From UHGV virus genome UHGV-0018639: a DNA stretch of 64,000 bases; one strand, written 5' to 3'. This document shows, piece by piece, positions 19,163 through 64,000 of this stretch. A program made the position numbers and the translations under genes. How positions within the stretch are numbered: the stretch's first letter is position 1; every line of letters begins with the position of its first letter. Origin of the DNA: a virus. The notes beneath the pieces were generated by a model, which worked only from the letters and a program-made list of their open reading frames with translations, did not search any database and was not told where the DNA came from.

Positions 19163-19163
19163 A

Positions 19164-37255: not shown

Positions 37256-37272
37256 AGTGAGAGAAAGATATG

Positions 37273-38195: not shown

Positions 38196-38275
38196 GGTGC
38201 GTTAGGCGAATTGGTAGAGCCGCTACCCTTTCAAGGTAGAGTTTTTTGGGAGTTCAAGCCTCCCACGCATCACCA
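38196..38275 (+). tRNA. tRNA-Glu (anticodon TTC)
   Basis: GGTGCGT..CTACC-CTTTCAA-GGTAG..GGGAGTTCAAGCCTCCC..ACGCATC-A-CCA, followed by a terminator hairpin. Confidence 0.7.
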
Positions 38276-51068: not shown

Positions 51069-51443
51069 ATGACTATTAGAGAGCTTTATGTTGCAGTTAT
51101 CAATGGCGAGATGAATGATGAGATGGTTGAGAAGGCTACTGCGCTTCTGGCCACGATGGACAAGGCGAAGGAAACCGCGAAGAACAAGCCCAGTAAGGCC
51201 GCTCTGACCAATGAGAAGTATCTGGCTTACCTCAAGGCCAATGTGCTTACCAGTGAGGGTAAGATTGGTTCTGAGCTGGCTGATGCGCTGACCAATGCGT
51301 TTGCTGAGGACTTCAGCGAGAAGTCCTGCTCTGCTACCAAGGTTGCAAGTATTCTGAAGGCTAGCATCGCTGATGGTTCTGTTGTCAAGGGCAAGACCAA
51401 GATTGACAAGAGCGAGCGCACTACCTATGCGCTTGCTGAGTAA
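51069..51443 (+). CDS. hypothetical Lys/Ala-rich protein (about 124 aa)
   Basis: Start at MTIRELYV; GC-richer than its neighbours; followed by hairpins. Confidence 0.5.
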   Translation: MTIRELYVAVINGEMNDEMVEKATALLATMDKAKETAKNKPSKAALTNEKYLAYLKANVLTSEGKIGSELADALTNAFAEDFSEKSCSATKVASILKASIADGSVVKGKTKIDKSERTTYALAE

Positions 51444-52125: not shown

Positions 52126-52404
52126 ATGAGCCAAAAAATATTCGAGTGCTACAGTTTACGATTGGCTATGTATCTTATTGATCAAGGGTTTATAGTAATA
52201 AGACTGCGCCCTGACATTAAGAAAAGTGGCAATATGGTTTACTTTTTCAATGAAACTTCTGCTCTTAGAAAAGCGGTAGGGGATTTTAAGAGCACTCATT
52301 CAAAATTGTCTACAAAGGAGTCTACATATGAGTGTGCCAAATCAGAAAATAATACGTATATCAAAGAAGAAATACAAGGAGAACTTTCTCCAAATAGGGA
52401 TTGA
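52126..52404 (+). CDS. small hypothetical protein (92 aa)
   Basis: Strong RBS GAAAGGAGAAA; 77-nt overlap with the next gene in the +1 frame. Confidence 0.45.
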   Translation: MSQKIFECYSLRLAMYLIDQGFIVIRLRPDIKKSGNMVYFFNETSALRKAVGDFKSTHSKLSTKESTYECAKSENNTYIKEEIQGELSPNRD

Positions 52405-53179
52405 TGAATGGATGGAAGCCGCGCGAGTATTGAATCCGGGCGGTTTGAAATTATATCTCTATTTAGCGTCTAATGCTGACGGGTTTAATTTGGAATTGAG
52501 TCCTGCGGCAATTCTTGAAAAGTTAGATATAAAGAAATCAACATATTATAATGCGATAAATACCCTTGAGGAGTTAGGGTATATCAACTTAGTTCAAGGG
52601 AATATTTATCAGTTTACTACAACCCCTGTTTCCAAAAATTTGGAAAAAGAGGTTGATTCCAAGAATTTGGAAAAGACAGCCAATTCCAAAAAATTGGAAA
52701 ATGGAGATAAGAAGCCACCAATTTTTTCCAAAAATTTGGAAGCTGCGGAGGTAAGTAAGCCAAAAATTGATAAAAAGAATGAAAATACTAATTTTGACAT
52801 TTCCAAAAACTTGGAAAGTGATTCCAATTCTTTGGAAAGTGATTCCAAAAAATTAGACCAAACTTTCCAAAAAATTACTATAGAAATAGATAAAATAGAT
52901 AATATAGATAAAATAAATAATGTTCGGCCTTTTGATGAAAAAAGAAAAGAAGAGTTGAGAGAAGATATTTCAGATGGTGGCTATATAAAGTCAAAGAAGG
53001 AATGGGTTATAGACAGGTTTCATCATTTTAGGCAGGAGCCACATGATATGCAAATTCATCGGTTATCTTTTTATGGCTATTCCATAGAAGAGGCTGAGTT
53101 TATTGTTAAAGAAATTTTGAGCGAAGAAAAGATGAAAAGAGTAGAAAGAAGTTTAGGGATAATGCCGCTTGAACCCTAA
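52328..53179 (+). CDS. putative replication initiator (wHTH N-terminal domain, SKNLE repeats)
   Basis: The N-terminal winged-helix block is typical of plasmid/phage Rep proteins. Its central region has 5 or more copies of the peptide (S)KNLE(K/S), encoded by the same TTCCAAAAATTTGGAA palindromes that recur in the downstream iteron field. Confidence 0.55.
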   Translation: MSVPNQKIIRISKKKYKENFLQIGIDEWMEAARVLNPGGLKLYLYLASNADGFNLELSPAAILEKLDIKKSTYYNAINTLEELGYINLVQGNIYQFTTTPVSKNLEKEVDSKNLEKTANSKKLENGDKKPPIFSKNLEAAEVSKPKIDKKNENTNFDISKNLESDSNSLESDSKKLDQTFQKITIEIDKIDNIDKINNVRPFDEKRKEELREDISDGGYIKSKKEWVIDRFHHFRQEPHDMQIHRLSFYGYSIEEAEFIVKEILSEEKMKRVERSLGIMPLEP

Positions 53180-53254
53180 AAACCAGAAAATCTCCTAAGA
53201 ACCAACCCTTTTCGGTTTTTCGGTTCGCGCGTCTTTAGGTAGGGTAAGTAAGTT

Positions 53255-53625
53255 AGTTGAATTTTCCAAAAATTTGGAAAGACTATAAGTCTAGCTTGCT
53301 CTATGACCTCGCGCGAAGGCAACGCCGCATCCGTAAGTAGGACAGTTGTGTAAGTCAAGTCAAATGTCAAGAAAGTAAAACAAAATGTCAAGCCTTTCAA
53401 CAGACTTGACATTTGACTTGACACATTTGACATTTGACTTGACATTTATCTTACTTACAATCTTACCTACACGTGCGCCTTCACCAATTTTGGTAGGAAC
53501 GCCGCCCTGTAAGTAAGACAGGAATTTTGGGACGTTAGAATTTTCCAAAAATTTGGTAAGTGCGGCGTGCTAGAAAAATTCTAGAAATTTTGGGGCGAGA
53601 GAATTTTCCAAAAATTCCACCGTTG
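53255..53625. repeat. TTTTCCAAAAATTTGGAAAG palindromes (3 or more copies), also embedded within the rep-like gene 52328-53179
   Basis: Copies at about 53263, 53533 and 53603; related TTCCAAAATTTGGAAG copies at about 54625, 54768 and 54990; at least 5 copies inside the Rep ORF, where they encode the SKNLE repeats. Confidence 0.55.
53368..53452. repeat. TTGACATTTGAC direct-repeat cluster (5 or more copies)
   Basis: CAAATGTCAAG...AAATGTCAAG...GACTTGACATTTGACTTGACACATTTGACATTTGACTTGACATTT. Confidence 0.6.
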
Positions 53626-53754
53626 ATGGAGTAAGAAAAATTGTGAAAAATTTGTGAATTTTTCAGTTGGACAGAAAATTTTAGGACTGTGAATTTTAGG
53701 AGAGTAAGTAAATCTCCTACACTTTATATTGTAAGTAAGGCATATAAGTAAGGT

Positions 53755-54075
53755 AGATAAGTTAACTTATAAGTAGGACTTATAAGTAAGACTTATAAGT
53801 TAACTGTGTGTTTTACTTATAAGTTAACTGATAATTCAATCTATAAGTTAACTGACAGTCCAACCTATAAGTTAACTGATAACTCAACCGACTCCAAACC
53901 GCCTCGCGGGAGAGAGCACAAGTTCCACCTATAAGTCAACTGAACCCCAAACTATGCGTCCTACCTATAAGTTAACGGGAGGTTTGCGTGTGGGGGAAAG
54001 CGACCGACTCAGCGGGCGTATGCTGTTGTACCGTAGCTCTCAACTGCGTAGCCAACCTATAAGTCAACGAACACA
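53755..54075. repeat. iteron array: 11 or more copies of (A/C)CTATAAGT(T/C)AAC(T/G) at about 24-bp spacing
   Basis: ACTTATAAGTAGGACTTATAAGTAAGACTTATAAGTTAACTG...CTTATAAGTTAACTGA x4...CCTATAAGTCAACTG...CCTATAAGTTAACGG...CCTATAAGTCAACGA, with further copies at 54255-54285. Confidence 0.7.
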
Positions 54076-54784
54076 CAAGCGAACGCCCACTCCACATCGC
54101 TCGGTCATGTAATGGTCGAGGCCTTGTGCGGGGTATGGGGGGAGGCGTTTTTATGTAATTTTTTGGATATAATGTCAAATTTTATGCAAAATCAAGTTTC
54201 TTTTTTATAGAAAATATACAAAAAAATGAATAAATATGCATTTTCTCATGAGGCCGCGACTATACGTTTAACCTATAAGTAATACTTATAAGTAGGGCCT
54301 ACCTAACCTCTCCTCCAATTTTGGGGGGGAATTTTTTATGCCAAATGTGACAATGTCAAGTTTTACTTACACAACCAGCGCGGCCGTCGTTTTAACTAAC
54401 TTATTTTCTAACTTACTGGTAATCCCACAATTATAAACACCACTGGTTTTATTCTCCCAAACATTTGTAAGTTCTTTCTTGAAAAGACTTGCGCGCACAC
54501 AATTTTTTCGTGGCTCAGAATGAATAAATTACGGTTGGATGGTGCGACTTGCCCTACTTACAGGTGCGCCCGCCCAGAATTTCCCAGTTTTTCCAAAATT
54601 TTCCAACTTTTTTAGATTTTGTCAATTTTCCAAAATTTGGAAGTCGCGCACGGTTGAACGGCATACCTGACGGTCAGAAAAGTTGTTTTTTTTTACAATG
54701 TAGAGTTTTGTGACTTACTATACAATAAAAACAGAAATCGCGCTGGAAGAAATTTCCAGCTTATGTAAAAATTTGGAAGCGCCG

Positions 54785-54945
54785 CTGTGTAGGTTCCAGC
54801 TTATATAGGTTGGAAAAATTTTCCAGCTGCTGGTTTATTCTTCTAATTTTCCAGCTGGGCATTGTCGTAGTTGCTGCGTTTCAGTTTTTCTCCAGCTGCT
54901 ACGCTTTCCAGCTTTTCCAGCTGCTATATGTTTCAGCTGCTGGGA
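54785..54945. repeat. TTCCAGCTGCT direct repeats (6 or more copies)
   Basis: TTCCAGCTTAT, TTCCAGCTGCTGG, TTCCAGCTGGG, TCCAGCTGCTACGCTTTCCAGCTTTTCCAGCTGCTATATGTTTCAGCTGCTGG. Confidence 0.6.
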
Positions 54946-55107
54946 CCGATGGTGAGTGGAGGCGACCGCACGTGTGGGTTGGTAAAATTTGGAATTACTT
55001 CCAAAATTTGGAAGGCGGGCAAATGGAAGAAATTTACATTCTTCCGACTGGAAGGAAACTGACAATAAAACCCAATTTTTGGAAACTGAAAAATTTGAAA
55101 ATAATAA

Positions 55108-55127
55108 TTTAGACTAAAGTAGTCTAA
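55108..55127. promoter_or_regulatory. isolated copy of the palindrome (TTTAGACTAAAGTAGTCTAA) at the distal end of the early cluster
   Basis: Same half-sites. It lies just beyond the terminator of the last minus-strand gene, with no promoter attached. Confidence 0.45.
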
Positions 55128-55166
55128 TTTTTTATAAAATACAGAAAAGGGAGATTATCCCTTTTC
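55128..55166 (-). terminator. intrinsic terminator of the early cluster (its stem contains the exonuclease stop codon)
   Basis: Minus strand reads GAAAAGGGATAATCTCCCTTTTC followed by TGTATTTTAT. Confidence 0.6.
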
Positions 55167-56039
55167 TGACATTTTCTGCAAAAAAGCTTCAACTGTGCCA
55201 AGTTCACGGAATGGAAAATACAGTATGCCAAACTGATAATTGCCTTTTGTTCGCTTGTGAATTTCCGCAAAGATTTTACTTTCTATTTCTGCGTCAGAAA
55301 GTGCGGTATGCTCTTCATCAAAATCAAAATCTTTTGCAAGGAATCGAAACGACGTTTCCGCGCTTGTCTTGAAATATTTCCCGCTTGCCGTTATCCATTC
55401 ATTATCTACACAAGCCTGCTTATATTCATCATTGTTGAGCAAATGCCGCGCCGACAGTCCCCACAAATCAAACAGGGGATAAGCAACGCCGTGAAAACGA
55501 AATACATCACCTTCAAATTCGCGGCGGCTTTCGTGCGTTCTGCCGCTTGCAATGTTTTCACAAATGCGTTCCTGCAAGGCAAGCCACGAATGAAACTGCG
55601 GGGAATAAAGATTGTTTATATAAAGCTCTGTAAATGGAATTGCTTTCTTGAAGTCAAACATTGAGTTATACGCACCTACGGCGGAAACTTCGGACAAATC
55701 ACGCTCAAGAACGGTAATAGCGTGCTTCCAGTCGGTCAGCTTGATTTCGCCGCGCTCAAGGCGTTCAAGGTAAATCGGGCGTTTGCTTGCATAATATGCA
55801 GTGTCAAAGATTTCCGGAACGCTGAAAATTTCGCTTATCAGGAAAGAGCGGCGGCGATATACACGGCCTTTCGCGTCAATTATCTGCCAGCCTAAATCAT
55901 ATATCAGCGGCTTAGCAATAGCAACTTTCTGCTTCGCGGCGGCGTCTAACTTTGCGGCGTAGGGCAGTGTAGCAGTCTCACAGTCAAGAACCATGTAATA
56001 CTTGCGGCGGCGGTCGAGTCTCTTTTCCATTTTTATCAA
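55155..56039 (-). CDS. DEDDh 3'-5' exonuclease (DnaQ/RNase T-like)
   Basis: Exo I MVLDCETAT, Exo II YNSMFDFKKA, Exo III HTALSDAEIESKIF. 294 aa. Confidence 0.75.
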   Translation of the reverse strand: MIKMEKRLDRRRKYYMVLDCETATLPYAAKLDAAAKQKVAIAKPLIYDLGWQIIDAKGRVYRRRSFLISEIFSVPEIFDTAYYASKRPIYLERLERGEIKLTDWKHAITVLERDLSEVSAVGAYNSMFDFKKAIPFTELYINNLYSPQFHSWLALQERICENIASGRTHESRREFEGDVFRFHGVAYPLFDLWGLSARHLLNNDEYKQACVDNEWITASGKYFKTSAETSFRFLAKDFDFDEEHTALSDAEIESKIFAEIHKRTKGNYQFGILYFPFRELGTVEAFLQKMSEKG

Positions 56040-56099
56040 TTCCTTTTTTTGTTAATGTCAAGGGTCTGCCTTCGCTCCCTTGCAAGTATTATTATAGCA

Positions 56100-56167
56100 C
56101 CGCCGCGCAAGAAAGTCAATTGTTAGTTTTTTCACAAGGCTTGTTTTTTAGACTAACTTAGTCTAAA
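56100..56167 (-). promoter_or_regulatory. early-class operator and promoter: palindrome TTTAGACTAACTTAGTCTAAA plus TTGAC(A/T)-N17 -10
   Basis: Palindrome 56147-67. Confidence 0.6.
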
Positions 56168-56193
56168 AAAGCCTATAAAAAATGGGAACTTTT

Positions 56194-56529
56194 TCAAGTT
56201 CCCTTCTTTTCTGCCGCTTTTGCTTCGCGGCGTGCCTTGTCGCGTGCAATCTTCTTTTCCTTTTCGGCGGCTTTCGCGGCGGCCTTTTCTTTCTTGTCAT
56301 TCAGCTTGATTGCGTAATCCTCGCGGCGGCTATAACAGTCATCGCCTTCAAGCTCCTTTGGAACTTTTATAACTACCTGAATACAGCCTTCTTCGCCGTC
56401 ATCAGCAGCAACGGGGAAAGAAAAAGTATTCGCGGCTTCCAGCCCCACATCTTCGCCGTTTTCCTTCGCACAATTCATAAAGAATTCAACGAACTTCGCG
56501 CGCATAGCATTAGCATTTTTAACTGTCAT
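56194..56529 (-). CDS. hypothetical protein with Lys/Ala-rich basic tail (111 aa)
   Basis: GC-richer than flanking DNA; own operator-promoter. Confidence 0.5.
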   Translation of the reverse strand: MTVKNANAMRAKFVEFFMNCAKENGEDVGLEAANTFSFPVAADDGEEGCIQVVIKVPKELEGDDCYSRREDYAIKLNDKKEKAAAKAAEKEKKIARDKARREAKAAEKKGT

Positions 56530-56557
56530 TTTTCATATCTCCTTTTCATTTGGTAAT

Positions 56558-56627
56558 TGTATTTTATCATATAAACTGCGAATTGTCAATATCTTTTTTC
56601 TAGAAATTTAGACTAACTTAGTCTAAA
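56558..56627 (-). promoter_or_regulatory. early-class operator and promoter
   Basis: Palindrome 56607-27; minus strand reads TTGACA-N17-TAAAAT. Confidence 0.65.
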
Positions 56628-56654
56628 ATTTTGGCGGCGGGATTGCTCCCGCAT

Positions 56655-56891
56655 TTAAATCTCTTCGATTGAATTGTAATTTTCTTCCCAAAAGACTTCC
56701 ATATCTTCCTGCTTCAGTTCATTAAGAAGGCAGTCGATATTGTCTCTTGCCTGCCGAAAATCATCCTCATATGTACCACGCTCTTCGCTGCTGGTATAAA
56801 GGTCGTCAAGCAGTGCGGCGGCGTCTTTAAGAATTTTCTCGTCATAGTCATCCAGAACATAACGCTTCTTAGTGCAAGTCTTAATTATCAT
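56655..56891 (-). CDS. acidic hypothetical protein (78 aa)
   Basis: ORF track entry; own operator-promoter. Confidence 0.5.
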   Translation of the reverse strand: MIIKTCTKKRYVLDDYDEKILKDAAALLDDLYTSSEERGTYEDDFRQARDNIDCLLNELKQEDMEVFWEENYNSIEEI

Positions 56892-56924
56892 TTTTAAAAT
56901 CTCCTTTTCTTATTTTGTAAATAA

Positions 56925-56992
56925 AGTATAACATAATTTTTTTGAAAAGTCAAGTTTTTTTGTGCTGTGGTTTTAGACTAACTTAGTCTAAA
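56925..56992 (-). promoter_or_regulatory. early-class operator and promoter
   Basis: Palindrome 56972-92. Confidence 0.6.
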
Positions 56993-57021
56993 TGACGTGA
57001 GAGACATTGGTCTCTCAAGTT

Positions 57022-57198
57022 TCAATCTTTTTTGGTTCCAAACATCTGTTCCCAGCGCCAGTCATTGAATGAAATGTTCTGATGTTCACACCTATCACAG
57101 ATTGCCCCATTGTCGCAAGGGCGATTGCCATTTTCATCGGCATAGCAGTGACAAACTTCACTTAAATAACGACTGTATAAATAAACCATTTTATCCAT
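57022..57198 (-). CDS. small Cys-rich protein (about 58 aa)
   Basis: ORF I found by eye, MDKMVYLYSRYLSEVCHCYADENGNRPCDNGAICDRCEHQ...; own operator-promoter. Confidence 0.4.
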   Translation of the reverse strand: MDKMVYLYSRYLSEVCHCYADENGNRPCDNGAICDRCEHQNISFNDWRWEQMFGTKKD

Positions 57199-57224
57199 TG
57201 TTTTTTCTCCTTTTTTTATTGTGT

Positions 57225-57284
57225 TTGTATTATAACACCATAGTGTGCATTTGTCAACTCTGTTTTAGACTACAATAGTCTAAA
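57225..57284 (-). promoter_or_regulatory. early-class operator and promoter
   Basis: Palindrome TTTAGACTACAATAGTCTAAA 57264-84; TTGACA-N17-TATAAT. Confidence 0.65.
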
Positions 57285-57301
57285 AACCCAAAACGGGAAA
57301 A

Positions 57302-57769
57302 TCAATTTGACTTTCCCAGAATCTTCAAAATTCCATACATTTCTTTTTCATTGAATGCATTGATGCCCCATTCTTCACGGTTACGCGCTTCATCGTCAAA
57401 GAGAATTGCTTCATCATCATAGAATGAGCAGACCGTTGATTTCGGCGTTCCATAAGGAACAACACGAATTTCATCAAACTGGACACTTTTCAAATGAGTT
57501 GCAAGCCATTCTTTTTTTGCTTGCTCAATTAGAGCAAGATACGCTGCACTTGCTGTTTTACTTCCCCAAGAGACAATACAAATTTTATATCCCATTTTCT
57601 TCAGCTTATTCAACTGCCGCGCGAGTGTGCGCATATTGCCGAGCGGGTCAGCATATAAATATGGAGTGGGAATACTTTTCTGCAGACACTCAAGCCATTG
57701 CGGATATGAATAAAAATCAACTATTGTTCCGTCCATATCAAAGACGATTGCGGGCTTGTGGTTATACAT
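57302..57769 (-). CDS. HAD-superfamily hydrolase / phosphatase
   Basis: Motif I FDMDGTIVD. 155 aa. Confidence 0.7.
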   Translation of the reverse strand: MYNHKPAIVFDMDGTIVDFYSYPQWLECLQKSIPTPYLYADPLGNMRTLARQLNKLKKMGYKICIVSWGSKTASAAYLALIEQAKKEWLATHLKSVQFDEIRVVPYGTPKSTVCSFYDDEAILFDDEARNREEWGINAFNEKEMYGILKILGKSN

Positions 57770-57789
57770 AAATCATAATTTCCTTTCTT

Positions 57790-57868
57790 ATTTTGTAAAA
57801 TAAGTATAACATAAATGCGCGGCATTGTCAAGTTTTTTTGTGAGTGGTTTTAGACTAACTTAGTCTAA
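57790..57868 (-). promoter_or_regulatory. early-class operator and promoter
   Basis: Palindrome 57848-68; TTGACA-N17-TATACT. Confidence 0.6.
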
Positions 57869-57896
57869 AAAAGAAAAAACTGGTAAAAATTACCAG

Positions 57897-58094
57897 TCAA
57901 AGATATGTAAATTCTTTTGTTGGCTCATAAGGCACGATTGTGTATGATGAATTTTTGAAGCCCAACTGCCGTGAAAGCCGTTTATTTTCTTCCACTATGC
58001 GCTTGCACTCTTTTTCATCAGTAGAAGCTCCGATTATAACTCCATTATCATAATAGTAATCGGTTGCGCGGTGATATACAAAATAGATTGTCAT
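57897..58094 (-). CDS. hypothetical protein (65 aa)
   Basis: ORF track entry. Confidence 0.45.
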   Translation of the reverse strand: MTIYFVYHRATDYYYDNGVIIGASTDEKECKRIVEENKRLSRQLGFKNSSYTIVPYEPTKEFTYL

Positions 58095-58107
58095 TCTTTC
58101 GCTCTCC

Positions 58108-58338
58108 TTACATTATAATTCTAAAATCAATTTTTGGAATTTTTACTACTTCGTTTTGCTCAAAGGAAAACGGTTCACCTGAACTCAAGTCAATGGCATT
58201 GAAATCATCTCCATCATCTAAACTCATAAACTTTTGAGTTTTTAAGTAAATGGCCATATCTTCACCTATGATTACTTCACTAACAGGAACATCACAAAAA
58301 TTTTTTTCTTCCCATTGAAAATCTTTAGTTATTTTCAT
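58108..58338 (-). CDS. hypothetical protein, family A copy 1 (76 aa)
   Basis: Paralog of 60050-60283, sharing DD(L)FNAI(A/D)LS(D/S)GE...I(P/V)...(E/D)...I.M. Confidence 0.5.
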   Translation of the reverse strand: MKITKDFQWEEKNFCDVPVSEVIIGEDMAIYLKTQKFMSLDDGDDFNAIDLSSGEPFSFEQNEVVKIPKIDFRIIM

Positions 58339-58359
58339 TATATTTAATTCCTTTCTTTT

Positions 58360-58425
58360 AGTGTCTATATTATATCATAATGTGCCAATTTTGTCAACTA
58401 TTGTTTTAGACTATGGTAGTCTAAA
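58360..58425 (-). promoter_or_regulatory. early-class operator and promoter
   Basis: Palindrome TTTAGACTATGGTAGTCTAAA 58405-25; TTGACA-N17-TATAAT. Confidence 0.65.
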
Positions 58426-58453
58426 ACGCCCTAAAAGAGCGAGAAAATCTCGC

Positions 58454-58675
58454 TCAATTTTCAAGAATAAATCTATATTTTACTTTACAACATGGCGTGT
58501 CGTCACCTACCCAGAATAACTCTCCATTATCGAGATAAACCGCGTTGCCTTCATCGGTCGTATCTGTTTTTATAAAGATATTGGCAGGGTCAATTTCTTT
58601 ATAAAGAACTTCACCGCGCGAAAAACCACAAAAGGGAGAACTTTCCTTACCATTGCGCAAATCTTCAATATACAT
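58454..58675 (-). CDS. hypothetical protein, family B copy 1 (73 aa)
   Basis: Paralog of 59813-60034 (MYIEDLRNGKESSPF...DEGNAVYLDNGELF...KYRFILEN). Confidence 0.5.
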   Translation of the reverse strand: MYIEDLRNGKESSPFCGFSRGEVLYKEIDPANIFIKTDTTDEGNAVYLDNGELFWVGDDTPCCKVKYRFILEN

Positions 58676-58711
58676 TTTTGTTTCCTCCTTAAATTCTTTT
58701 CAATAAATGCC

Positions 58712-58849
58712 AAGAGCCAATGCGAAAAACTACACGGTAAATAGCGCGGCCTATACGGACTTCTTCGCCCCTCTGGAATTTGTTATTTGACGCTTTGCCG
58801 AAATCCCATCCGCAATAGCCGAAAATTTCATTCATTACGCTTGCCTCCC
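58712..58849 (-). CDS. small hypothetical protein (about 45 aa)
   Basis: ORF I found by eye, MNEIFGYCGWDFGKASNNKFQRGEEVRIGRAIYRVVF... Confidence 0.3.
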
Positions 58850-58854
58850 TTTCT

Positions 58855-58928
58855 TGACTACATCATATCATATTTTTTAGGAAATGTCAATAAAAATTTT
58901 AGAAACTTTTAGACTAACTTAGTCTAAA
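58855..58928 (-). promoter_or_regulatory. early-class operator and promoter
   Basis: Palindrome 58908-28, plus an extra half-site TTTGTCTAAA at 58930. Confidence 0.6.
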
Positions 58929-58972
58929 ATTTGTCTAAAAAAGAAATGGGATTTTCTCCCATTTCTCTCGGT

Positions 58973-59344
58973 TTACTTCTCTATGAAGTAAACCTTGCGC
59001 TTGCCCACCTTCGGGAACTTACGCTCTTCCACGCTGATAAGGCCATCCTTCACAAGTCCGCGGGCAATCGCGCCTGCCTTGTTATGTGTGATTTCAAGAG
59101 CTTCGCCCAGCTCCGTCTCGGTCAGGCCGTCACAGCCGTCCGCGTTCAGCGTCTCCATGATTGCGGCGCGGATAGGCGCGTTCTCCTTCTCTGACTTCTC
59201 TGCGGCCTTGCTCTTGCGCTGGTCGTTGCGGCGGTCAAGATTGGACAGAGCTTCCACACAATAGGCGTTCAGCTCGTCGGTCAGGTCATACTTCTCCATC
59301 ATGGTGGTGAAAAACTCGCGTGCGGTCATCTTCTTGTCGTTCAT
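58973..59344 (-). CDS. putative winged-helix DNA-binding protein (GC-rich, about 57% GC)
   Basis: ...GLTETELGEALEITHNKAGAIARGLVKDGLISVEE...KVGKRKVYF has a wHTH-like C-terminal half. Its strikingly higher GC than the AT-rich neighbours suggests horizontal acquisition. Confidence 0.5.
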   Translation of the reverse strand: MNDKKMTAREFFTTMMEKYDLTDELNAYCVEALSNLDRRNDQRKSKAAEKSEKENAPIRAAIMETLNADGCDGLTETELGEALEITHNKAGAIARGLVKDGLISVEERKFPKVGKRKVYFIEK

Positions 59345-59409
59345 AGCATTTCCTTTCTAAATGGCGCTAAGGTCGCCGCCCTTATTAGTGCGGGGCTTTA
59401 TCTCCCCTT

Positions 59410-59485
59410 CACGATTATTATTATAGCACAATATCGCGGAAAGTCAACAATTATTTTTTGGATTTTTAGACTATCTTAGTCTAAA
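59410..59485 (-). promoter_or_regulatory. early-class operator and promoter (upstream of the GC-rich wHTH gene)
   Basis: Palindrome TTTAGACTATCTTAGTCTAAA 59465-85. Confidence 0.6.
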
Positions 59486-59503
59486 AGCAAAAAAGAAGAT
59501 TTA

Positions 59504-59689
59504 TTAATCTTCTTCATCCCATTCTTTTATAAGGGCGAGCGAACCATCTTCTAAAATTTTCCAAATTTCATAGTATTTGGTTTCATCAAGAGGCGCAGTT
59601 CTCCAATCATCAACTATACGCTCAGGAATAATTGCGGCGTCACATTCCCATTGGTCACTTAAAGGGCGTGCTTCGCATATAAGATACAT
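59504..59689 (-). CDS. acidic hypothetical protein (61 aa)
   Basis: ORF track entry. Confidence 0.45.
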   Translation of the reverse strand: MYLICEARPLSDQWECDAAIIPERIVDDWRTAPLDETKYYEIWKILEDGSLALIKEWDEED

Positions 59690-59714
59690 TTTTAAAATCT
59701 CCTTTTCTTTTTTT

Positions 59715-59780
59715 AGTAATTGTATTATATCTCAAAGTTTCTAAAAAGTCAAGTCGTGTTTTAGACCAACTTAGTCTAAA
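59715..59780 (-). promoter_or_regulatory. early-class operator and promoter
   Basis: Palindrome TTTAGACCAACTTAGTCTAAA 59760-80. Confidence 0.6.
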
Positions 59781-59812
59781 AAAGTTTTTCTGAAAAAGAG
59801 CGGGAGAACCGC

Positions 59813-60034
59813 TCAATTTTCAATGGTGAATGTATATTTTACGGGAAAACAAAGTTCTTGCGGACTTACTTTAAAAACCTCCCCATTGTCAACGTAAACG
59901 GCGTTACCTTCGTCAGTTTCGTCTATTTTCATAAAAAATTCATTGGGGTCGCATTTTTTGACAAGTAAGGCTCCTTTTTCAAAAGAGTCAAAAGGAAATA
60001 CCGTCTTTGAATTGCGTAAATCCTGTACATACAT
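59813..60034 (-). CDS. hypothetical protein, family B copy 2 (73 aa)
   Basis: MYVQDLRNSKTVFPF...DEGNAVYVDNGEVF...KYTFTIEN. Confidence 0.5.
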   Translation of the reverse strand: MYVQDLRNSKTVFPFDSFEKGALLVKKCDPNEFFMKIDETDEGNAVYVDNGEVFKVSPQELCFPVKYTFTIEN

Positions 60035-60049
60035 TTTTTCAAATCTCCT

Positions 60050-60283
60050 TTACATTTCAATTTCAAGGTTATATTCTGTGGGAATCCAAACAATTTCATC
60101 TATGTCAAAAAGTCGGAGTTCTCCATCAGAAAGTGCGATTGCATTGAAGAGGTCATCTTCATCTTCTCGGCGTATTGTTGTAGTAGAAATATAAGGCTTG
60201 CCGCAGTCATCGAGAAAAAGCTGACCATAATCAACAAAACCATAACTCGTTCCGAAATTGCCTGTCTTAACTTTGTAATTCAT
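60050..60283 (-). CDS. hypothetical protein, family A copy 2 (77 aa)
   Basis: Paralog of 58108-58338. Confidence 0.5.
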   Translation of the reverse strand: MNYKVKTGNFGTSYGFVDYGQLFLDDCGKPYISTTTIRREDEDDLFNAIALSDGELRLFDIDEIVWIPTEYNLEIEM

Positions 60284-60299
60284 TTTTAATTCCCCCTTT

Positions 60300-60376
60300 A
60301 GTGTCTATATTGTATCATATACCGCACGAATTGTCAATAAAAATTTCAGAAACTTTTTAGACTAACGTAGTCTAAA
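60300..60376 (-). promoter_or_regulatory. early-class operator and promoter
   Basis: Palindrome TTTAGACTAACGTAGTCTAAA 60356-76; TTGACA upstream. Confidence 0.6.
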
Positions 60377-60398
60377 ATTTTAGAAAAAGGAAGATTTT

Positions 60399-60707
60399 TC
60401 AACCTTCCTCTTCGTCATGCTGGAATATGAGAGTAAAAGACATATACTCATCGAGATACCGCGCGGTCTGTGGATTAATGTCAAAGTCGTCACATACATC
60501 CGCGGCGCTTTCTTCCTTGCTATAATAACGACAAGTCTGGAGCGGGCTAGTCAAATCAATGACTGGAACATTAACATTAGCCGTGGTTGCTGGCCGTCCT
60601 ATGACAAGAAGTCGGGTGCGGCCTTCATGGTTTTCGCCATAAATTGCGTAAAGATTGCCAATTTCAACCAGTCCGCTTATCACTGTACCAATATCAAATT
60701 CAACCAT
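60399..60707 (-). CDS. hypothetical protein (about 102 aa)
   Basis: Start at MVEFDIGTV after AAAGGAG. The ORF-track start at 60770 would overlap the promoter. Confidence 0.5.
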   Translation of the reverse strand: MVEFDIGTVISGLVEIGNLYAIYGENHEGRTRLLVIGRPATTANVNVPVIDLTSPLQTCRYYSKEESAADVCDDFDINPQTARYLDEYMSFTLIFQHDEEEG

Positions 60708-60734
60708 TTTTTTAAATCTCCTTTTTTTATTTTG

Positions 60735-60808
60735 TAAATATATAATACCATACCCCGCATGATTTGTCAATGTATTTTTTCACAAAATTTAGACCAACTT
60801 AGTCTAAA
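60735..60808 (-). promoter_or_regulatory. early-class operator and promoter
   Basis: Palindrome 60788-808. Confidence 0.6.
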
Positions 60809-60833
60809 AATTCCAAAAACCAAAAAGTGGAAA

Positions 60834-61223
60834 TTACTTTCCACTCATTGGACACACGGCTAAGCCGCGCTCAGTTAAATATTTGATTGCTTTTTCGCCG
60901 TCGTGGTAGTTTAAAATGTCTTGAATTGATGGATGTGCTTTATCATACTTAAAGCAAAAAGAAATATCAATATCTTTTTGTTTCTTCTCATTTGCTATCG
61001 GGAGACAATCTTCCCATTTAGCAAAACGGCGAAAGCCTTTTCTATTTTTTTCAACGCTGACACCGCTAGTATATCCTTTGTTAAAATACTCTTCTAATAA
61101 ATCCCAACTGCCGTGAACTTCTTTATCTTTGGGAATTTCATCATCAAGGTGGAAGCCCTTCGACGTGATATCTATAAGTTTATTGTTATAATATGTATAA
61201 ACCCATCCATAAAATGCCTTCAT
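60834..61223 (-). CDS. hypothetical protein (about 129 aa)
   Basis: Start at MKAFYGWVY after GGAAGG, abutting the upstream membrane-protein gene. Confidence 0.45.
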   Translation of the reverse strand: MKAFYGWVYTYYNNKLIDITSKGFHLDDEIPKDKEVHGSWDLLEEYFNKGYTSGVSVEKNRKGFRRFAKWEDCLPIANEKKQKDIDISFCFKYDKAHPSIQDILNYHDGEKAIKYLTERGLAVCPMSGK

Positions 61224-61441
61224 TTCGCCACTTCCTTCCCCACGCCAAGAACAATTTTTGTAATCCACAGAATAAGCCACATTAGAAACGCGGTTTTTGC
61301 GCTGAACGCAAAAGCAATAACGCCCAACTTAGTGAGCGCCCACCACAATACCCAAATCAGGCCGAGAGTAAATCCCGCGCTTATCGCGCTAAGCAGGGCA
61401 ACAATGATAATTCCAAGAATGACTGCGAAAGTTTTATTCAT
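61220..61441 (-). CDS. small membrane protein (73 aa, 2 TM)
   Basis: VILGIIIVALLSAISAGFTLGLIWVLWWAL... Confidence 0.5.
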   Translation of the reverse strand: MNKTFAVILGIIIVALLSAISAGFTLGLIWVLWWALTKLGVIAFAFSAKTAFLMWLILWITKIVLGVGKEVAK

Positions 61442-61464
61442 TTTTTATCAATTCCTTTCCGGTT

Positions 61465-61541
61465 TTGTAAGACAAGTATAACATATAAATTTTGGTTTGT
61501 CAACCAATTTTCTAAGAATTTTTAGACTAAGATAGTCTAAA
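61465..61541 (-). promoter_or_regulatory. early-class operator and promoter
   Basis: Palindrome TTTAGACTAAGATAGTCTAAA 61521-41. Confidence 0.6.
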
Positions 61542-61569
61542 TTTGGTAGAAATTCCAAAAAAGCGGGGC

Positions 61570-61806
61570 TTAAAAGCCCCGCCCGAACATTTTTTCTAGT
61601 TTTCTTTCATATTCAAGCTGTGCGAGCCGTTCCTCTTCTTCCTCTTGCTCAGCTTCCTCTTCCTCTTCGAGCCGCAGGTCGTTATACCAAGCGTAATCAT
61701 CACATTCTTCAGCGGGATTGCCGTCTATACAGCAATAACCATTCTTATAATAGGGGCAATCAATATCGCCTTCAGCAGGGCAAGTATAAGATGAAAATTC
61801 CTTCAT
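61570..61806 (-). CDS. Cys-rich protein with poly-Glu tail (about 78 aa)
   Basis: MKEFSSYTCPAEGDIDCPYYKNGYCCIDG...EEEEEAEQEEEEE; start after AAGGAG. Confidence 0.5.
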   Translation of the reverse strand: MKEFSSYTCPAEGDIDCPYYKNGYCCIDGNPAEECDDYAWYNDLRLEEEEEAEQEEEEERLAQLEYERKLEKMFGRGF

Positions 61807-61829
61807 TGTGGTATCTCCTTCACTCAATT

Positions 61830-61904
61830 TCTGTACCAAGTATAACACATAACCGCGCACTTGTCAATAAGAAATTTTGGCAATTTTAGACTAAGATAGT
61901 CTAA
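61830..61904 (-). promoter_or_regulatory. early-class operator and promoter
   Basis: Palindrome 61884-904. Confidence 0.6.
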
Positions 61905-61922
61905 ATTTTGAGCGGGAACTTT

Positions 61923-62234
61923 TCAGTTCCCTTTGTTCCAATCTTCAGAAATGCGATCAAAGACTTCTTCAGATGTAAGCCAACCCTCAACAGAATCGCC
62001 ATTGCGAGTCAGACCCATTATTTCGAGAAGCCCTTCTTCATGTCCATAACTGCCGCTATGACAAATTGCATCACAAATCAAATTCTTTCCGTGGCCGTAA
62101 TATCGCACAGAAGGCATCCCTATAACATAGTCTATTCGATAGGGAATTTTTGCCTCTTGCAGAAGCCACTCAAGTTTGCCCATTTCAATATATTTTATTT
62201 CAATTCCGCATGAGTCCTTCTTTATCAGTTCCAT
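61923..62234 (-). CDS. hypothetical protein (103 aa)
   Basis: ORF track entry. Confidence 0.5.
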   Translation of the reverse strand: MELIKKDSCGIEIKYIEMGKLEWLLQEAKIPYRIDYVIGMPSVRYYGHGKNLICDAICHSGSYGHEEGLLEIMGLTRNGDSVEGWLTSEEVFDRISEDWNKGN

Positions 62235-62254
62235 TTTTCAAAAACTCCTTTTCT

Positions 62255-62332
62255 TATTGTATTTATATAATATCACAAAATTTTCGTAAGTCAACCCACA
62301 AAAAATTCCAATTTAGACTATGATAGTCTAAA
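62255..62332 (-). promoter_or_regulatory. early-class operator and promoter
   Basis: Palindrome TTTAGACTATGATAGTCTAAA 62312-32. Confidence 0.6.
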
Positions 62333-62362
62333 ATTCTGAAAAAGTTTGAGCTTTATCAGCTC

Positions 62363-62542
62363 AAACAAATTCTGCAAAAGAGCGCTCCACAGCTCTTGCA
62401 TCTTCGCGGCGACACTCAACCCTTATCAGGTTATCGCCTAGATGCTCTACAAAGCAGGGAATATTAGCCTCTAGCAGATTCATCGCTCGAATAAATTCGG
62501 GCGCGTTCGCATCTTCAACATAAATTTCCTTTATATACATTT
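62363..62542 (-). CDS. small hypothetical protein (about 59 aa)
   Basis: ORF I found by eye, MYIKEIYVEDANAPEFIRAMNLLEANIPCFVEHL... Confidence 0.35.
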
Positions 62543-62559
62543 GGTAATCAATTCCTTTC

Positions 62560-62643
62560 TCTCAATTTCTGTATTTATTATATCACAAATTTTCTATAAT
62601 GTCAAATCCATTTTCTTTCCAATTTAGACTATAATAGTCTAAA
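62560..62643 (-). promoter_or_regulatory. early-class operator and promoter
   Basis: Palindrome TTTAGACTATAATAGTCTAAA 62623-43. Confidence 0.6.
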
Positions 62644-62684
62644 ACAAAAATTTTCGTAAAAAAAGGAGCGGGAAATAATCCCGC

Positions 62685-62966
62685 TCAATTCCAGCCGCGC
62701 ATTTTCCAGCACAGAGCATCGCCCGGCTGCCCGTAGCAGATGTTCGGGTGCAGAATAACCTCACCTTCGAGGATTCCGAGCTTTTCGCAGAACTCCTCGA
62801 TCAGCACGTCGGTAGCTTCAATGCGCGCCTGCTCCAGCGTGTCGGCTGACGGAGCTTCCAGCTCTCCCCAGCTAATAAGGACACTATTCACAATCGGCGG
62901 CAGGCGGTGAGCGTTCGCGGCAACGTAGGCGCAGAGTTCACGGTAATTTATGGCGGTAGTAGTCAT
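62685..62966 (-). CDS. hypothetical protein (about 93 aa, GC-rich; weak HicB-antitoxin-like N-terminus)
   Basis: Start at MTTTAINYREL after AAGGGGGA. About 55% GC. Confidence 0.45.
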   Translation of the reverse strand: MTTTAINYRELCAYVAANAHRLPPIVNSVLISWGELEAPSADTLEQARIEATDVLIEEFCEKLGILEGEVILHPNICYGQPGDALCWKMRGWN

Positions 62967-62989
62967 TGGAAAATCCCCCTTTTCAAGTA

Positions 62990-63062
62990 TGACTAATTTT
63001 ACCACGGATTCACGGAAATGTCAATGGCCAAGGATTTCCATTTTAGACTATGATAGTCTAAA
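62990..63062 (-). promoter_or_regulatory. early-class operator and promoter
   Basis: Palindrome 63042-62. Confidence 0.6.
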
Positions 63063-63161
63063 TTTTTTTGTTTGTGAAATAACTAACGAATTTCGGTAAA
63101 ATTTTCACAAAGCGTAATCGTTTGTGAAATAACAAACAAACTTTTTCAAAAAAAGGAACGG

Positions 63162-63518
63162 TCAAATGACCGCTCCAATTTTTCCCATTTTCTGCCATTT
63201 TGTAATTATTTTCCAATTTTCGGACGCCTGCCGCACAAGCGATGAAGGCGCGGTTTTGCCGTGCGCGTTGAATATGTCATTGATTTGCTTGACTGTCGCA
63301 GGATAGAATGTTATCAGAACGCCGCGTTTCCCGCGCACAAAAGCAATAGCATTGTCAGTTATATCAATGTGCGCGGCGCGTTCAGCGTCGTAGAATGTGG
63401 CATAGGTCTGCCCTATGCCAAGTTCAGATATAAGAAGCGCGCGGTCGACACGCTCTGAACTAACGTGCCGACTCGCGCGCCGTGCCTTATACATTGTGTG
63501 TCTGGTCGTAGACCGCAC
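63162..63518 (-). CDS. hypothetical basic protein (118 aa)
   Basis: ORF track entry, GC-rich. Confidence 0.45.
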   Translation of the reverse strand: MRSTTRHTMYKARRASRHVSSERVDRALLISELGIGQTYATFYDAERAAHIDITDNAIAFVRGKRGVLITFYPATVKQINDIFNAHGKTAPSSLVRQASENWKIITKWQKMGKIGAVI

Positions 63519-63580
63519 CAGCTATCAGGCCGACAGCTCCAAGGAAAGCGAAGAGAGCGAATCCAAGCGTAAAGTACATA

Positions 63581-63856
63581 TCACTCATCCTCCTTCAACA
63601 TCTGGAACTGGTCATACAGTTCCCAGCGCACATACACGACCAGCTCCGGCCAGCGGGGGCTGTCGTAGCTCAAGCGGGCGCAAAAGCTCACGACTGTCGC
63701 AGTGTCCAGCTCATCTTCAGACCACCAACGGCGGTGTACGGCGTAACCGTCCTTTCCGTTGTGGGTCGCGTACTCCAGCCGATAGCCCGTTGTGGCTTCG
63801 TAAAGCGCAATGTGGTTGTCCTGCTGGTTCAGGCTTTTCAATTGTCCAAGTGTCAT
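63581..63856 (-). CDS. hypothetical protein (91 aa)
   Basis: RBS AGGAAGGAG; a GC hairpin lies upstream. Confidence 0.45.
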   Translation of the reverse strand: MTLGQLKSLNQQDNHIALYEATTGYRLEYATHNGKDGYAVHRRWWSEDELDTATVVSFCARLSYDSPRWPELVVYVRWELYDQFQMLKEDE

Positions 63857-63913: not shown

Positions 63914-64000
63914 TCAGATTGTTTCCGGCAGGGTCATGCCGTCAAATTCGCGGATATCATACACGGTTTCAGGGTCATAAACGTAGCCGTAGTTTTCAGC
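63914..64000 (-). CDS. C-terminal end of a gene that continues past the window end
   Basis: Open minus-strand frame ...AENYGYVYDPETVYDIREFDGMTLPETI*. Confidence 0.35.
   Translation of the reverse strand, partial: AENYGYVYDPETVYDIREFDGMTLPETI

Follow-up and report, generated by a model that had tools for sequence, protein, structure and literature searches.

The 64,000-nucleotide stretch of virus genome UHGV-0018639 analysed here (hereafter the window) carries a minus-strand cluster of small early genes with 17 copies of one palindrome, TTTAGACTA-N3-TAGTCTAAA. Sixteen of these copies are located in front of a predicted promoter, at one of three distances that differ by a turn of the DNA helix, and the same arrangement recurs in related phages. 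Given these sequence features, we consider it reasonably probable that the palindrome is the operator of one phage-encoded, probably dimeric DNA-binding protein, which would shut off the early genes in a manner dependent on contact with RNA polymerase.

A phased palindrome array

The array is read on the minus strand. The whole window was searched for TTTAGACTANNNTAGTCTAAA with up to two mismatches, and the expectation was taken from shuffled sequence. There are 17 sites, all within 55108-63062, whereas 0.01 were expected. Fourteen are exact and three have one mismatch (those starting at 55108, 59760 and 60788), and the search found no site in the remaining 55 kb of the window. A reading of this DNA from its letters alone (the sequence-only reading) had already reported 17 copies at 55100-63070 and none elsewhere, which is borne out. 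It had described the element as a perfect 9-bp inverted repeat; the palindrome is real, but its invariant core comprises only two 8-bp arms around a 3-bp centre, TTAGACTA-N3-TAGTCTAA, and the outermost T/A positions vary without covariation.

Each intergenic gap has the same layout, wherein the stop codon of the upstream gene is followed by a stem-loop (mostly with a T-run), the palindrome, a spacer, a promoter and an AAGGAG-type ribosome-binding site (RBS) for the next gene. Promoters were called by a consensus scan, and stem-loops by folding the 50-nucleotide segments upstream of the palindromes in comparison with shuffles. A separate, stable stem-loop is located 0-11 nucleotides upstream of all 17 palindromes (z -2.7 to -7.1). 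It corresponds to the hairpin that ends the upstream gene for 16 of the 17 copies, with a T-run in most, and the one before the copy at 63042 is the inverted repeat TTTGTGAAA...TTTCACAAA. On the other side, 16 of the 17 palindromes precede promoters of the form TTGAC(A/T)-N16/17-(TGn)TAnnnT that score 10-12 out of 12, most of them with an extended -10 TG. As predicted from its sequence, the unit of the array is therefore a terminator, a palindrome and a promoter.

The gap between the palindrome and the -35 hexamer is quantised in steps of one helical turn, with values of 6/7 bp (three copies), 17/18 bp (12 copies) and 27 bp (one copy). If transcription starts about 7 nucleotides after the -10 hexamer, the palindrome centres would be located near -53, -63 and -73. 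The looser spacing of 7-17 bp given in the sequence-only reading has to be replaced by these values. Its statement that every copy has its own sigma70-type promoter holds for 16 copies and fails for the promoter-less copy at 55108. Similarly, the genes are separately promoted as it proposed, but instead of about 17 independent small genes there are 16 promoters serving 21 open reading frames (ORFs), because five units are bicistronic.

The palindrome is not itself a terminator, a point on which the sequence-only reading was right. Its stem is AT-rich and A residues follow, where an intrinsic terminator would have a GC-rich stem and a U-tract, and a separate stem-loop is present upstream of every copy. 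Promoters of phage N4 consist of a short hairpin with a 3-nucleotide loop centred just upstream of the start site, without a sigma-70 promoter. The palindrome is not of this type: it is located 50-75 bp upstream of the predicted starts of consensus sigma-A promoters, and half-sites also occur alone.

Numbered in the direction of reading, and with positions given for the palindrome, the -35 hexamer and the -10 hexamer, the copies with a 17-bp gap are copy 1 (63042-63062, 63024-63019, 63001-62996), copy 2 (62623-62643, 62605-62600, 62582-62577), copy 3 (62312-62332, 62294-62289, 62272-62267), copy 4 (61885-61905, 61867-61862, 61844-61839), copy 5 (61521-61541, 61503-61498, 61480-61475), copy 6 (60788-60808, 60770-60765, 60747-60742), copy 9 (59465-59485, 59447-59442, 59425-59420), copy 10 (58908-58928, 58890-58885, 58867-58862), copy 12 (57849-57869, 57831-57826, 57808-57803) and copy 15 (56607-56627, 56589-56584, 56566-56561). 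The gap is 18 bp for copy 7 (60356-60376, 60337-60332, 60314-60309) and copy 14 (56972-56992, 56953-56948, 56930-56925), 7 bp for copy 8 (59760-59780, 59752-59747, 59729-59724) and copy 11 (58405-58425, 58397-58392, 58374-58369), 6 bp for copy 13 (57264-57284, 57257-57252, 57234-57229) and 27 bp for copy 16 (56147-56167, 56119-56114, 56096-56091). The promoter spacer is 16 bp at copies 3 and 9. Copies 6 and 8 carry their mismatch as TGGTCTAAA on the sense strand, and copy 10 has an additional half-site-like TTTTAGACAAA directly upstream. Copy 17 (55108-55128), with a mismatch at an outer position, is the terminal copy without a downstream promoter; it has conserved counterparts in relatives, where its position is kept.

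Conservation and helical phasing in related phages

Relatives were found by exact-match scans of IMG/VR and metagenome contigs, and their palindromes were counted as unique copies within multi-copy loci. The palindrome is present in four IMG/VR contigs and in dozens of metagenome contigs with 70-90% DNA identity to the window. Such a motif search of related phages had been suggested with the sequence-only reading; it recovered 369 unique copies, 356 of which have the perfect 16-bp core, while the outermost positions and the 3-bp centre vary freely.

There are 308 copies with good promoters, and their gaps measure 6-8 bp (123 copies), 16-18 bp (169 copies) or 27-29 bp (13 copies), with only three copies at other distances. 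When these are clustered by downstream gene, there are 108 independent cassette families, all of which fall within the three spacing classes, and nine orthologous families differ between genomes by exactly 10 bp (7 versus 17 or 17 versus 27). The spacer sequences are unrelated, with 70 distinct 7-mers and 96 distinct 17-mers at pairwise identities of 33-38%, and the promoter hexamers also vary among copies. Because unrelated spacers from 108 families fall into three classes, and because orthologues switch by 10 bp, there is selection on spacer length and thereby on the face of the helix. The 17-bp spacers have an A-tract 5-9 bp before the -35 hexamer, which is where a proximal UP subsite would be expected.

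The only bias in the centre is that G is missing at position 10 and C at position 12. This is explained by the avoidance of CTAG throughout the genome (observed/expected ratio 0.43), and extended recognition of the centre triplet by a protein was therefore rejected. Six 4-bp palindromes are strongly depleted in the whole window (observed/expected ratios of 0.25 for CATG, 0.30 for GATC, 0.34 for GTAC, 0.38 for CCGG, 0.43 for CTAG and 0.51 for TTAA), a pattern that suggests restriction avoidance.

Palindrome classes in other lineages

Further related phages were reached via two sets of distant homologues, those of a winged helix-turn-helix (wHTH) protein and those of the gene that opens the cluster. 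Their loci carry palindromes of other sequences in the same architecture, and the changes between classes are symmetric in both arms. The window's own palindrome, TTAGACTA/TAGTCTAA, defines class A. Class B, TTAGACGT-N3-ACGTCTAA, is found in 15 loci, class D, TTAGATGT-N3-ACATCTAA, in locus L186, and class E, TCGTACGT-N3-ACGTACGA, in locus L197. The gaps in these other classes are 7/8, 17/18 and 27/28 bp, and locus L198 also has gaps of 37-39 bp; the series in the more distant relatives is thus 8, 18, 28 and 38 bp.

A fifth group (L091, L096 and L183-L185) has no such palindrome and has a different first gene, which encodes a protein of about 160 amino acids (aa) with a GSD...SxKS motif. Promoters in these palindrome-less loci are located behind consensus-like UP A/T tracts (AAAATTTTTTTGGAAAAA) upstream of TTGACA. 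Upstream of these promoters there are also GCCCGGGC or ACTTTA-N6-TAAAGT elements, whose distances are unphased.

The first gene of the cluster as candidate regulator

The presence or absence of gene families was profiled over 17 loci, of which 12 bear palindromes and five do not. Only the family of the first gene tracks the palindrome without exception, being found at each of the 12 loci with palindromes (a count that includes the window, with its C-terminal fragment) and at none of the five palindrome-less loci. Nine further loci fetched with the first-gene protein all have multi-copy palindromes, giving 21 of 21 versus zero of five. The family members are 166-209 aa long and share 21-40% identity. 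Residues E41, D61, E78 and K80 are invariant among 11 sequences, and the spacing E41-D61-E78-x-K80 fits a PD-(D/E)xK core by sequence pattern only.

The promoter of the first gene, located with its half-site about 0.7 kb past the end of the window, is the only one in the cluster that lacks an upstream palindrome. Instead, in classes A, B and D, an isolated half-site that matches the class of the locus is present in or beside its core promoter. The representatives are TTGACAgTTAGACGc (L088), TTTAGACGTatgtTATTAT (L085) and TTGACAaatGCGTCTAAtcgtgtTATAAT (L198) for class B, ggTTAGATGT TAATAT (L186) for class D and cAGTCTAAAAattcTTGACT (L188 and L202) for class A. In the class E locus L197, the half-site TTCGTACGTgcTAATAT abuts a -10-like hexamer about 0.5 kb upstream of the annotated gene. 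In 11 of 18 loci, the 160 nucleotides ahead of the first gene contain an exact half-site 7-mer, against a background of 0.02 per 160 nucleotides; the count becomes 14 of 18 if three class A loci with the 7-mer at about 168 nucleotides are included.

A lone half-site cannot form a hairpin, and thus it is presumably read as duplex DNA. Its location at the first-gene promoter implies that the factor reading it would also control the first operon, for which negative autoregulation would be the simplest reading. Taken with the co-occurrence pattern, these observations make the first-gene product the leading candidate for the factor that binds the palindrome. The region ahead of this gene in the genome to which the window belongs (L202:197-257) also has an inverted pair of half-sites, TTTTAGACA and cAGTCTAAA, about 40 bp apart, which looks like a palindrome split by an insertion.

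Regulators considered and rejected

The sequence-only reading had named the wHTH protein encoded at 58973-59344 as a candidate regulator. It is the most widespread product of the cluster (15 of 17 large contigs), and its structural model is confident (predicted local distance difference test, pLDDT, 87), showing a long helix and a winged helix, the latter with weak Foldseek matches (E ~3e-3) to MarR-, ArsR- and PadR-type proteins. Its recognition helix reads THNKAGAIARGLV in class A and THNKAG(A/S)L(A/V)RQLV elsewhere. This RQ-type helix accompanies class B, class D and no palindrome at all, while distant class B phages have quite different helices, and there are 2-4 paralogues of the family per genome. 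Because helix type does not track palindrome class, we no longer favour this protein and have rejected it as the leading candidate. The family is phage-specific and uncharacterised, with more than 1000 members in public data, and distant relatives have 3-4 paralogues. A second paralogue in the window, with a different recognition helix, is encoded outside the array at 51069-51443 on the plus strand and has equivalents in other loci (such as L083:14748-15110).

A host regulon was likewise rejected. The exact 18-base pattern occurs at seven loci in 185,579 species genomes (GTDB), two of which are short phage-like contigs of metagenome-assembled genomes (MAGs). By our own arithmetic (596 Gb / 4^18), about 10 occurrences are expected by chance. 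These features indicate that recognition of the palindrome is probably phage-encoded rather than a property of the host.

A model for control of the early genes, and points against it

The proposal of the sequence-only reading that the palindrome is the operator of one sequence-specific regulator is strengthened by its dyad symmetry, by the core shared among 356 of 369 copies, by the helical phasing and by the class-matched half-sites. According to the model that we favour, a protein dimer would bind the palindrome core at each of the 16 units. Because the centre is located at one of three integral turns, the bound protein would stand one, two or three helical turns from the promoter and would always face RNA polymerase from one side. 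Control would thus be exerted through contact with polymerase, most plausibly with its alpha C-terminal domains or in the UP-element zone, rather than by simple occlusion. Probably the protein is a repressor that would permit a first burst of transcription, shut down the 16 early units in concert and subsequently throttle its own operon through the half-site. A repressor is suggested because the promoters are near-consensus and because the core promoter of the first gene contains or adjoins a half-site. Repression is also favoured because the half-sites of classes B and D are positioned where they would occlude polymerase, and because there are precedents for repressors that act from about -60 to -70; the MrpR repressor site of phage SPbeta, 7 nucleotides from the -35 hexamer at aimR and yonX, is a further parallel. 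That a protein binds, which protein it is and in which direction it acts are inferred from the anatomy, phasing, conservation, class covariation, half-sites and co-occurrence described above.

Several points weigh against this model. Promoters and terminators are known only as predictions from consensus matches or folding, and identical anatomy would result from an activator with negative control of its own gene. Moreover, a model centred purely on promoters does not account for the terminal copy, which is conserved although it has no promoter. The candidate regulator is also an imperfect fit. It has no detectable DNA-binding domain and no relative in Pfam, PHROGs, NCBIfam, PADLOC or the PDB, and its single-sequence AlphaFold model is unusable (pLDDT 34). 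The E..D..ExK pattern suggests an active nuclease rather than a regulator, two subtypes with about 25% identity accompany the identical class B palindrome, and the co-occurrence of gene and palindrome may be due in part to shared descent. In addition, in the few cases where the core is altered at a good promoter, the change is always A-to-G on the sense strand and keeps a G-T wobble (about five independent events). A sense-strand hairpin would predict this pattern, which could be a weak hint of such a structure or could reflect strand-biased mutation. These variants are found at 59760 and 60788 in the window and in loci L043, L065 and L066-L068.

Alternative explanations

One possibility is that the regulator is a class-I-type activator, wherein the immediate-early product of the first operon recruits polymerase via the alpha C-terminal domain to 16 delayed-early units and represses its own promoter via the half-site. 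Class I sites for CRP are placed upstream in one-turn steps, which is the classical geometry of activation, and palindrome centres near -53, -63 and -73 match it. In its geometry, the array suits an activator as well as a repressor. The A-tract at -9 to -5 from the -35 hexamer in the 17-bp spacers is located where a proximal UP subsite would sit, and only the first operon is without a full operator. However, the target promoters are near-consensus (TTGACA, 17-bp spacer, TGn, TATAAT) and should need no activator, the weaker promoters are those of the first gene itself, and palindrome-less lineages use similar promoters with UP-like A/T tracts alone. For these reasons we regard an activator as unlikely. 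The conservation of E, D and E-x-K in a family of only 21-40% identity hints at catalysis, and thus the first-gene product might be a site-specific nuclease or nickase that cuts the junctions for cassette exchange or for the destruction of early templates, with any effect on transcription being secondary. Conservation to this degree over a 16-bp core would be less usual for operators than for restriction or homing sites, homology breakpoints concentrate at the palindromes, and the first gene co-occurs perfectly with them. Helical phasing relative to the -35 and -10 hexamers would nevertheless serve nothing in cleavage, the half-site in the core promoter of the first gene looks regulatory, ordinary homologous recombination also yields breakpoints at conserved junctions, and the nuclease fold is deduced from a sequence pattern only. 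We therefore judge cleavage to be an improbable primary function.

It is harder still to favour a purely structural role, in which the palindrome acts as a hairpin or cruciform in single-stranded DNA, extruded DNA or read-through RNA and signals through its structure, marks a processing site or stabilises 3' ends. The arms are perfect over 9-10 bp around a 3-nucleotide loop (predicted at -6.1 kcal/mol for DNA and -7.8 kcal/mol for RNA), class changes are compensatory in both arms, the rare sense-strand A-to-G variants are all compatible with G-T/G-U wobble, and read-through is plausible where several upstream hairpins lack a T-run. Yet isolated half-sites at the first-gene promoter cannot fold, the outermost positions vary without covariation, the palindrome stands between predicted terminators and promoters, and 10-bp phasing is a property of duplex geometry. 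Dyad covariation is predicted equally by a dimeric protein, and we hold a hairpin function to be very improbable. An even smaller likelihood is assigned to the idea that the palindrome is only a recombination linker, like the PeSL junctions of T4-type phages (PMC2839356, PMC4122927), that was made uniform by gene conversion without a dedicated protein. Terminator-promoter cassettes do flank small orphan ORFs in a hypervariable region, and relatives differ by cassette-level insertions and deletions whose boundaries coincide with the junctions. Gene conversion would make whole continuous tracts uniform, whereas here the arms are invariant and the centre and flanks vary. Because it would not have spared the centre and flanks, the PeSL concept fails to explain the palindrome, and the dyad symmetry, phasing, class covariation and half-sites would all be left unexplained. 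The idea that the phages exploit the operator of a host transcription factor has an almost negligible likelihood. Early promoters must act before any phage protein exists, and there are weak matches to the CodY box (consensus AATTTTCWGAAAATT, 2-3 mismatches; 24 versus 11.6 expected). Against this, the exact palindrome is at chance level in the 185,579 species genomes, closely related phages have at least four operator classes as well as palindrome-less lineages, and matched half-sites are present at the promoter of a phage gene. The CodY-box-like matches are concentrated in two settings, with positions 53260, 53539, 53602 and 54624 in a repeat region next to the cluster (AATTTTCCAAAAATT, three copies) and positions 56936, 58894, 59735, 60341, 60775 and 61506 in 17-bp spacers between operator and promoter.

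Comparison with known systems

Conserved inverted repeats of phiC31, stoperators of mycobacteriophage L5 and C1 operators of P1 are all systems in which one repressor acts at many similar intergenic sites among early genes. They serve the immunity of temperate phages, the sites of L5 and P1 lack symmetry, and the effect of stoperators, which is exerted on elongation, depends on their orientation. We know of no report that any of these sites occupy positions quantised by 10 bp upstream of the -35 hexamer.

SPBRE, a repeated element of Bacillus phage SPbeta, is bound by the repressor MrpR/YopR (PMC10516654). In NC_001884 it has the sequence AAATACAAAAAATATGTAT and, by our own reading, ends 7 nucleotides upstream of a -35-like hexamer at aimR and yonX, a distance equal to the shortest spacing class found here. 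Also alike are the AT-rich dyad, the roughly 10 intergenic repeats in a phage of about 134 kb, and the association with early promoters and one phage repressor. Furthermore, the morphogenesis genes of the phages examined here are distant homologues of YonB/D/F/G. In contrast, AAATACAAAAAATATGTAT is unrelated to TTAGACTA-N3-TAGTCTAA, and SPBRE is imperfect and located next to the RBS in other SPbeta promoters, whereas in the present array the copies are more numerous, the core is perfect and the phasing follows 10-bp steps strictly, in phages that are apparently virulent. A tblastn search with YopR found no MrpR/YopR homologue in the window or the fetched loci, which cover about half of the genome, although remote homologues would escape detection. 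Homology with the SPbeta regulatory system was rejected, as within this scope only YonF, YonG and YonH were matched and neither YopR nor another SPbeta regulator was found.

The PeSL (promoter-early stem-loop) cassettes of T4-like phages combine a terminator stem-loop with an early promoter (PMC2839356, PMC4122927). In those myoviruses, recombination between cassettes gives rise to mini-circles. As in that case, a strong sigma-70-type early promoter and a terminator are present between small orphan ORFs in a plastic region, and the junctions are sites of insertion, deletion and replacement between relatives, as judged from homology-block ends that are not mutually independent. PeSLs differ in that they have no separate, invariant and phased palindrome; the GC-rich terminator stem-loop is itself the element, and its position within the promoter is variable. 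Moreover, the phage examined here is not T4-like (it has a YonF-like terminase and morphogenesis genes like those of SPbeta and Geobacillus virus E3), and the host phylum differs.

Repression by phi29 p4 reportedly depends on a strong core promoter, a finding attributed to Monsalve et al. 1997. Upstream repression by contact with RNA polymerase is known for GalR at OE (-60.5) on galP1 (PMC4693257) and, according to the mention of Monsalve et al. 1996 (PMC38568) in PMC11806353, for p4 at the early A2c promoter. These cases resemble our model in that a dimer located about 60-70 bp upstream on a defined face of the helix inhibits initiation via the alpha subunit, although the mechanism is inferred here. 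They differ in being single sites at single promoters that are bound by unrelated proteins, whereas here one operator would serve 16-30 promoters from three or four phased distances.

Text searches of the literature for the motif or for a comparable layout gave nothing relevant. The principle is known from SPBRE/MrpR, PeSL and multi-operator regulons. What is new is a palindrome with a perfect 8-3-8 structure that is phased strictly by 10 bp at more than 100 promoters and that covaries between lineages in at least four classes, together with a candidate regulator that is an orphan and bears a nuclease-like motif.

Genes of the early cluster

All genes of the cluster are encoded on the minus strand. 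The window contains the last 29 codons of the first gene (63914-64000). The full gene encodes an orphan protein of 207 aa (L202:415-1038) with the invariant E..D..ExK residues, and the overlapping DNA is identical. The rest of this palindrome-less operon (63162-63856) comprises ORFs at 63581-63856 (91 aa), 63487-63588 (33 aa, a membrane peptide) and 63162-63494 (110 aa). At 63176-63155, a terminator-like hairpin closes this operon. Between this hairpin and palindrome copy 1, at 63070-63150 on the minus strand, there are two exact direct copies of GTTATTTCACAAAC (63070 and 63120) and an inverted partner, CTTTGTGAAAATTTT. This set is found nowhere else in the window and may be a second operator or a boundary element.

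Cassettes 1-4 encode proteins of 93 aa (62685-62966), 59 aa (62361-62540), 103 aa (61923-62234) and 78 aa (61570-61806), the last of which is Cys-rich with an acidic tail. Cassette 5 (60834-61441) has two ORFs, at 61220-61441 (73 aa, membrane) and 60834-61223 (129 aa), and is followed by the 102-aa gene of cassette 6 (60399-60707). There are also two ORFs in cassette 7 (59813-60283), namely 60050-60283 (77 aa) and 59813-60034 (73 aa), the latter being a paralogue of the gene at 58454-58675. Cassette 8 encodes 61 aa (59504-59689), and cassette 9, driven by the promoter at copy 9, encodes the 123-aa wHTH protein (58973-59344), the product of the most conserved gene of the cluster and one that is uncorrelated with palindrome class. 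Cassettes 10 (58454-58835) and 11 (57897-58338) again have two ORFs each, at 58689-58835 (48 aa) and 58454-58675 (73 aa), and at 58108-58338 (76 aa) and 57897-58094 (65 aa), respectively. Cassette 12 encodes a 155-aa HAD-family protein that resembles 5'(3')-deoxyribonucleotidase (57302-57769), and cassettes 13 and 14 encode 58 aa (57022-57198) and 78 aa (56655-56891). The products of the last two cassettes are kept in all lineages. They are a 111-aa protein with a Lys/Ala-rich basic tail (cassette 15, 56194-56529) and a 291-aa protein that matches phrog_20187 and has DEDDh-type exonuclease motifs (DxE, NxxxFD, Hx4D) read by eye (cassette 16, 55155-56030).

The identities given in the sequence-only reading (a DEDDh-like exonuclease, a HAD/5'-nucleotidase, a wHTH protein and paralogues) hold. 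For the early proteins other than the first-gene product, searches of Pfam, PHROGs, NCBIfam, PADLOC and the PDB gave only weak wHTH, HAD and DEDD signals, and there is no Rfam match in the early region.

Long 5' untranslated regions (60-130 nucleotides) with a GC-rich hairpin right after the predicted start are found in the wHTH unit (59345-59420, about 75 nucleotides), the exonuclease unit (56031-56090) and the first operon (L202:290-414), whereas those of the remaining cassettes are 20-35 nucleotides long. These hairpins could be 5' stabilisers or translational control elements.

Genome context and cassette exchange

The window has a 151-nucleotide identical overlap with the 132,582-bp metagenomic contig ERZ28614903 scaffold_86, which ends 951 nucleotides past position 64000. 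The region has no counterpart in cultured phages: among 50,697 phage records, there is no megablast match for it and no tblastn match for the wHTH protein, and the early regions of Geobacillus E3 and Phass-1 were uninformative when compared. On one flank of the cluster, a divergent large terminase of the YonF-like type is encoded, which shares 40% identity with its counterpart in Geobacillus virus E3, and there are matches to YonG_N, YonD_N and YonB nearby.

The other flank is a 1.9-kb repeat-rich non-coding stretch, toward which the early cluster is transcribed. This stretch (53200-55100) has no long ORFs and contains the short direct repeats CTTATAAGTTAACTG/TATAAGTAAG, TTGACATTTGACTTGACA, GAATTTTCCAAAAATTTGG and TTCCAGCTG. 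The adjoining plus-strand ORF at 52328-53179 encodes a 283-aa protein with weak HTH_36, TrmB and MarR-type winged-helix matches. Together they look like the iterons and initiator of a replication origin, or like some other cis-acting region.

Elsewhere, the window carries genes for topoisomerase II, helicase, ligase and RNase H, along with two group I introns, a ROOL RNA and 15-16 tRNAs. On the plus strand are the ROOL RNA (18440-19085, full length, 269 bits), the introns (21444-21662 and 33145-33494) and tRNAs (13822-20395 and 37272-38275). There are more than 100 IMG/VR contigs of 50-145 kb with a topoisomerase 54-98% identical to that of the window, and thus the clade is large. Its samples include human gut and buffalo rectum, and one phage-like fragment was binned with an Acutalibacteraceae MAG. 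The candidate host group is Acutalibacteraceae/Oscillospirales.

Two independent assemblies, L202 (132.6 kb) and L189 (129.3 kb), end 415-452 nucleotides upstream of the first early gene (L202:1-415 and L189:1-452; virtual positions ~64540-64950). Both ends fall in direct repeats of the GAATTTTGAAATTTTTG type and may represent a physical genome terminus. If so, the early cluster would be the first DNA at one end of the genome, like the terminal early regions of T5 or SPO1.

Relatives differ in gene content by whole cassettes. There are 143 homology-block ends (ends of high-scoring segment pairs), which are not mutually independent; 35% of them are located within 5 nucleotides of a palindrome (6.4% expected) and 47% within palindrome-plus-promoter intervals (15.8% expected). 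This distribution suggests that the predicted terminator-operator-promoter junctions are the boundaries at which related phages gain, lose or swap cassettes.

Implications

More than 100 independent strong promoters with an operator only at integral helical turns, together with sister lineages in which the operator has been swapped or lost, constitute a natural test of promoter architecture, and the rules of contact-dependent control at sigma-A promoters become testable in phages that infect Clostridia. The association with the first gene also nominates an uncharacterised protein family as a regulator, perhaps one with a nuclease fold. The operator classes provide a set of orthogonal operator-promoter parts and a simple marker by which the early, putative 'host-takeover' regions can be found in a phage clade that is large, abundant and uncultured. 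Because operator junctions double as points of exchange for early genes, regulation would be linked to genome plasticity.

A more far-reaching proposal, which we put forward tentatively and consider possible but doubtful, is that an orphan with a PD-(D/E)xK-like core, the product of the outermost gene at the genome end, was recruited as a master regulator, dependent on helical phase, of 16-30 shuffling early cassettes. Operator and regulator would then have co-diversified into at least four classes that act as immunity or exclusion groups in apparently virulent gut and rumen phages. If this is true, a resident phage would keep early promoters silent in any superinfecting phage that shares its class.

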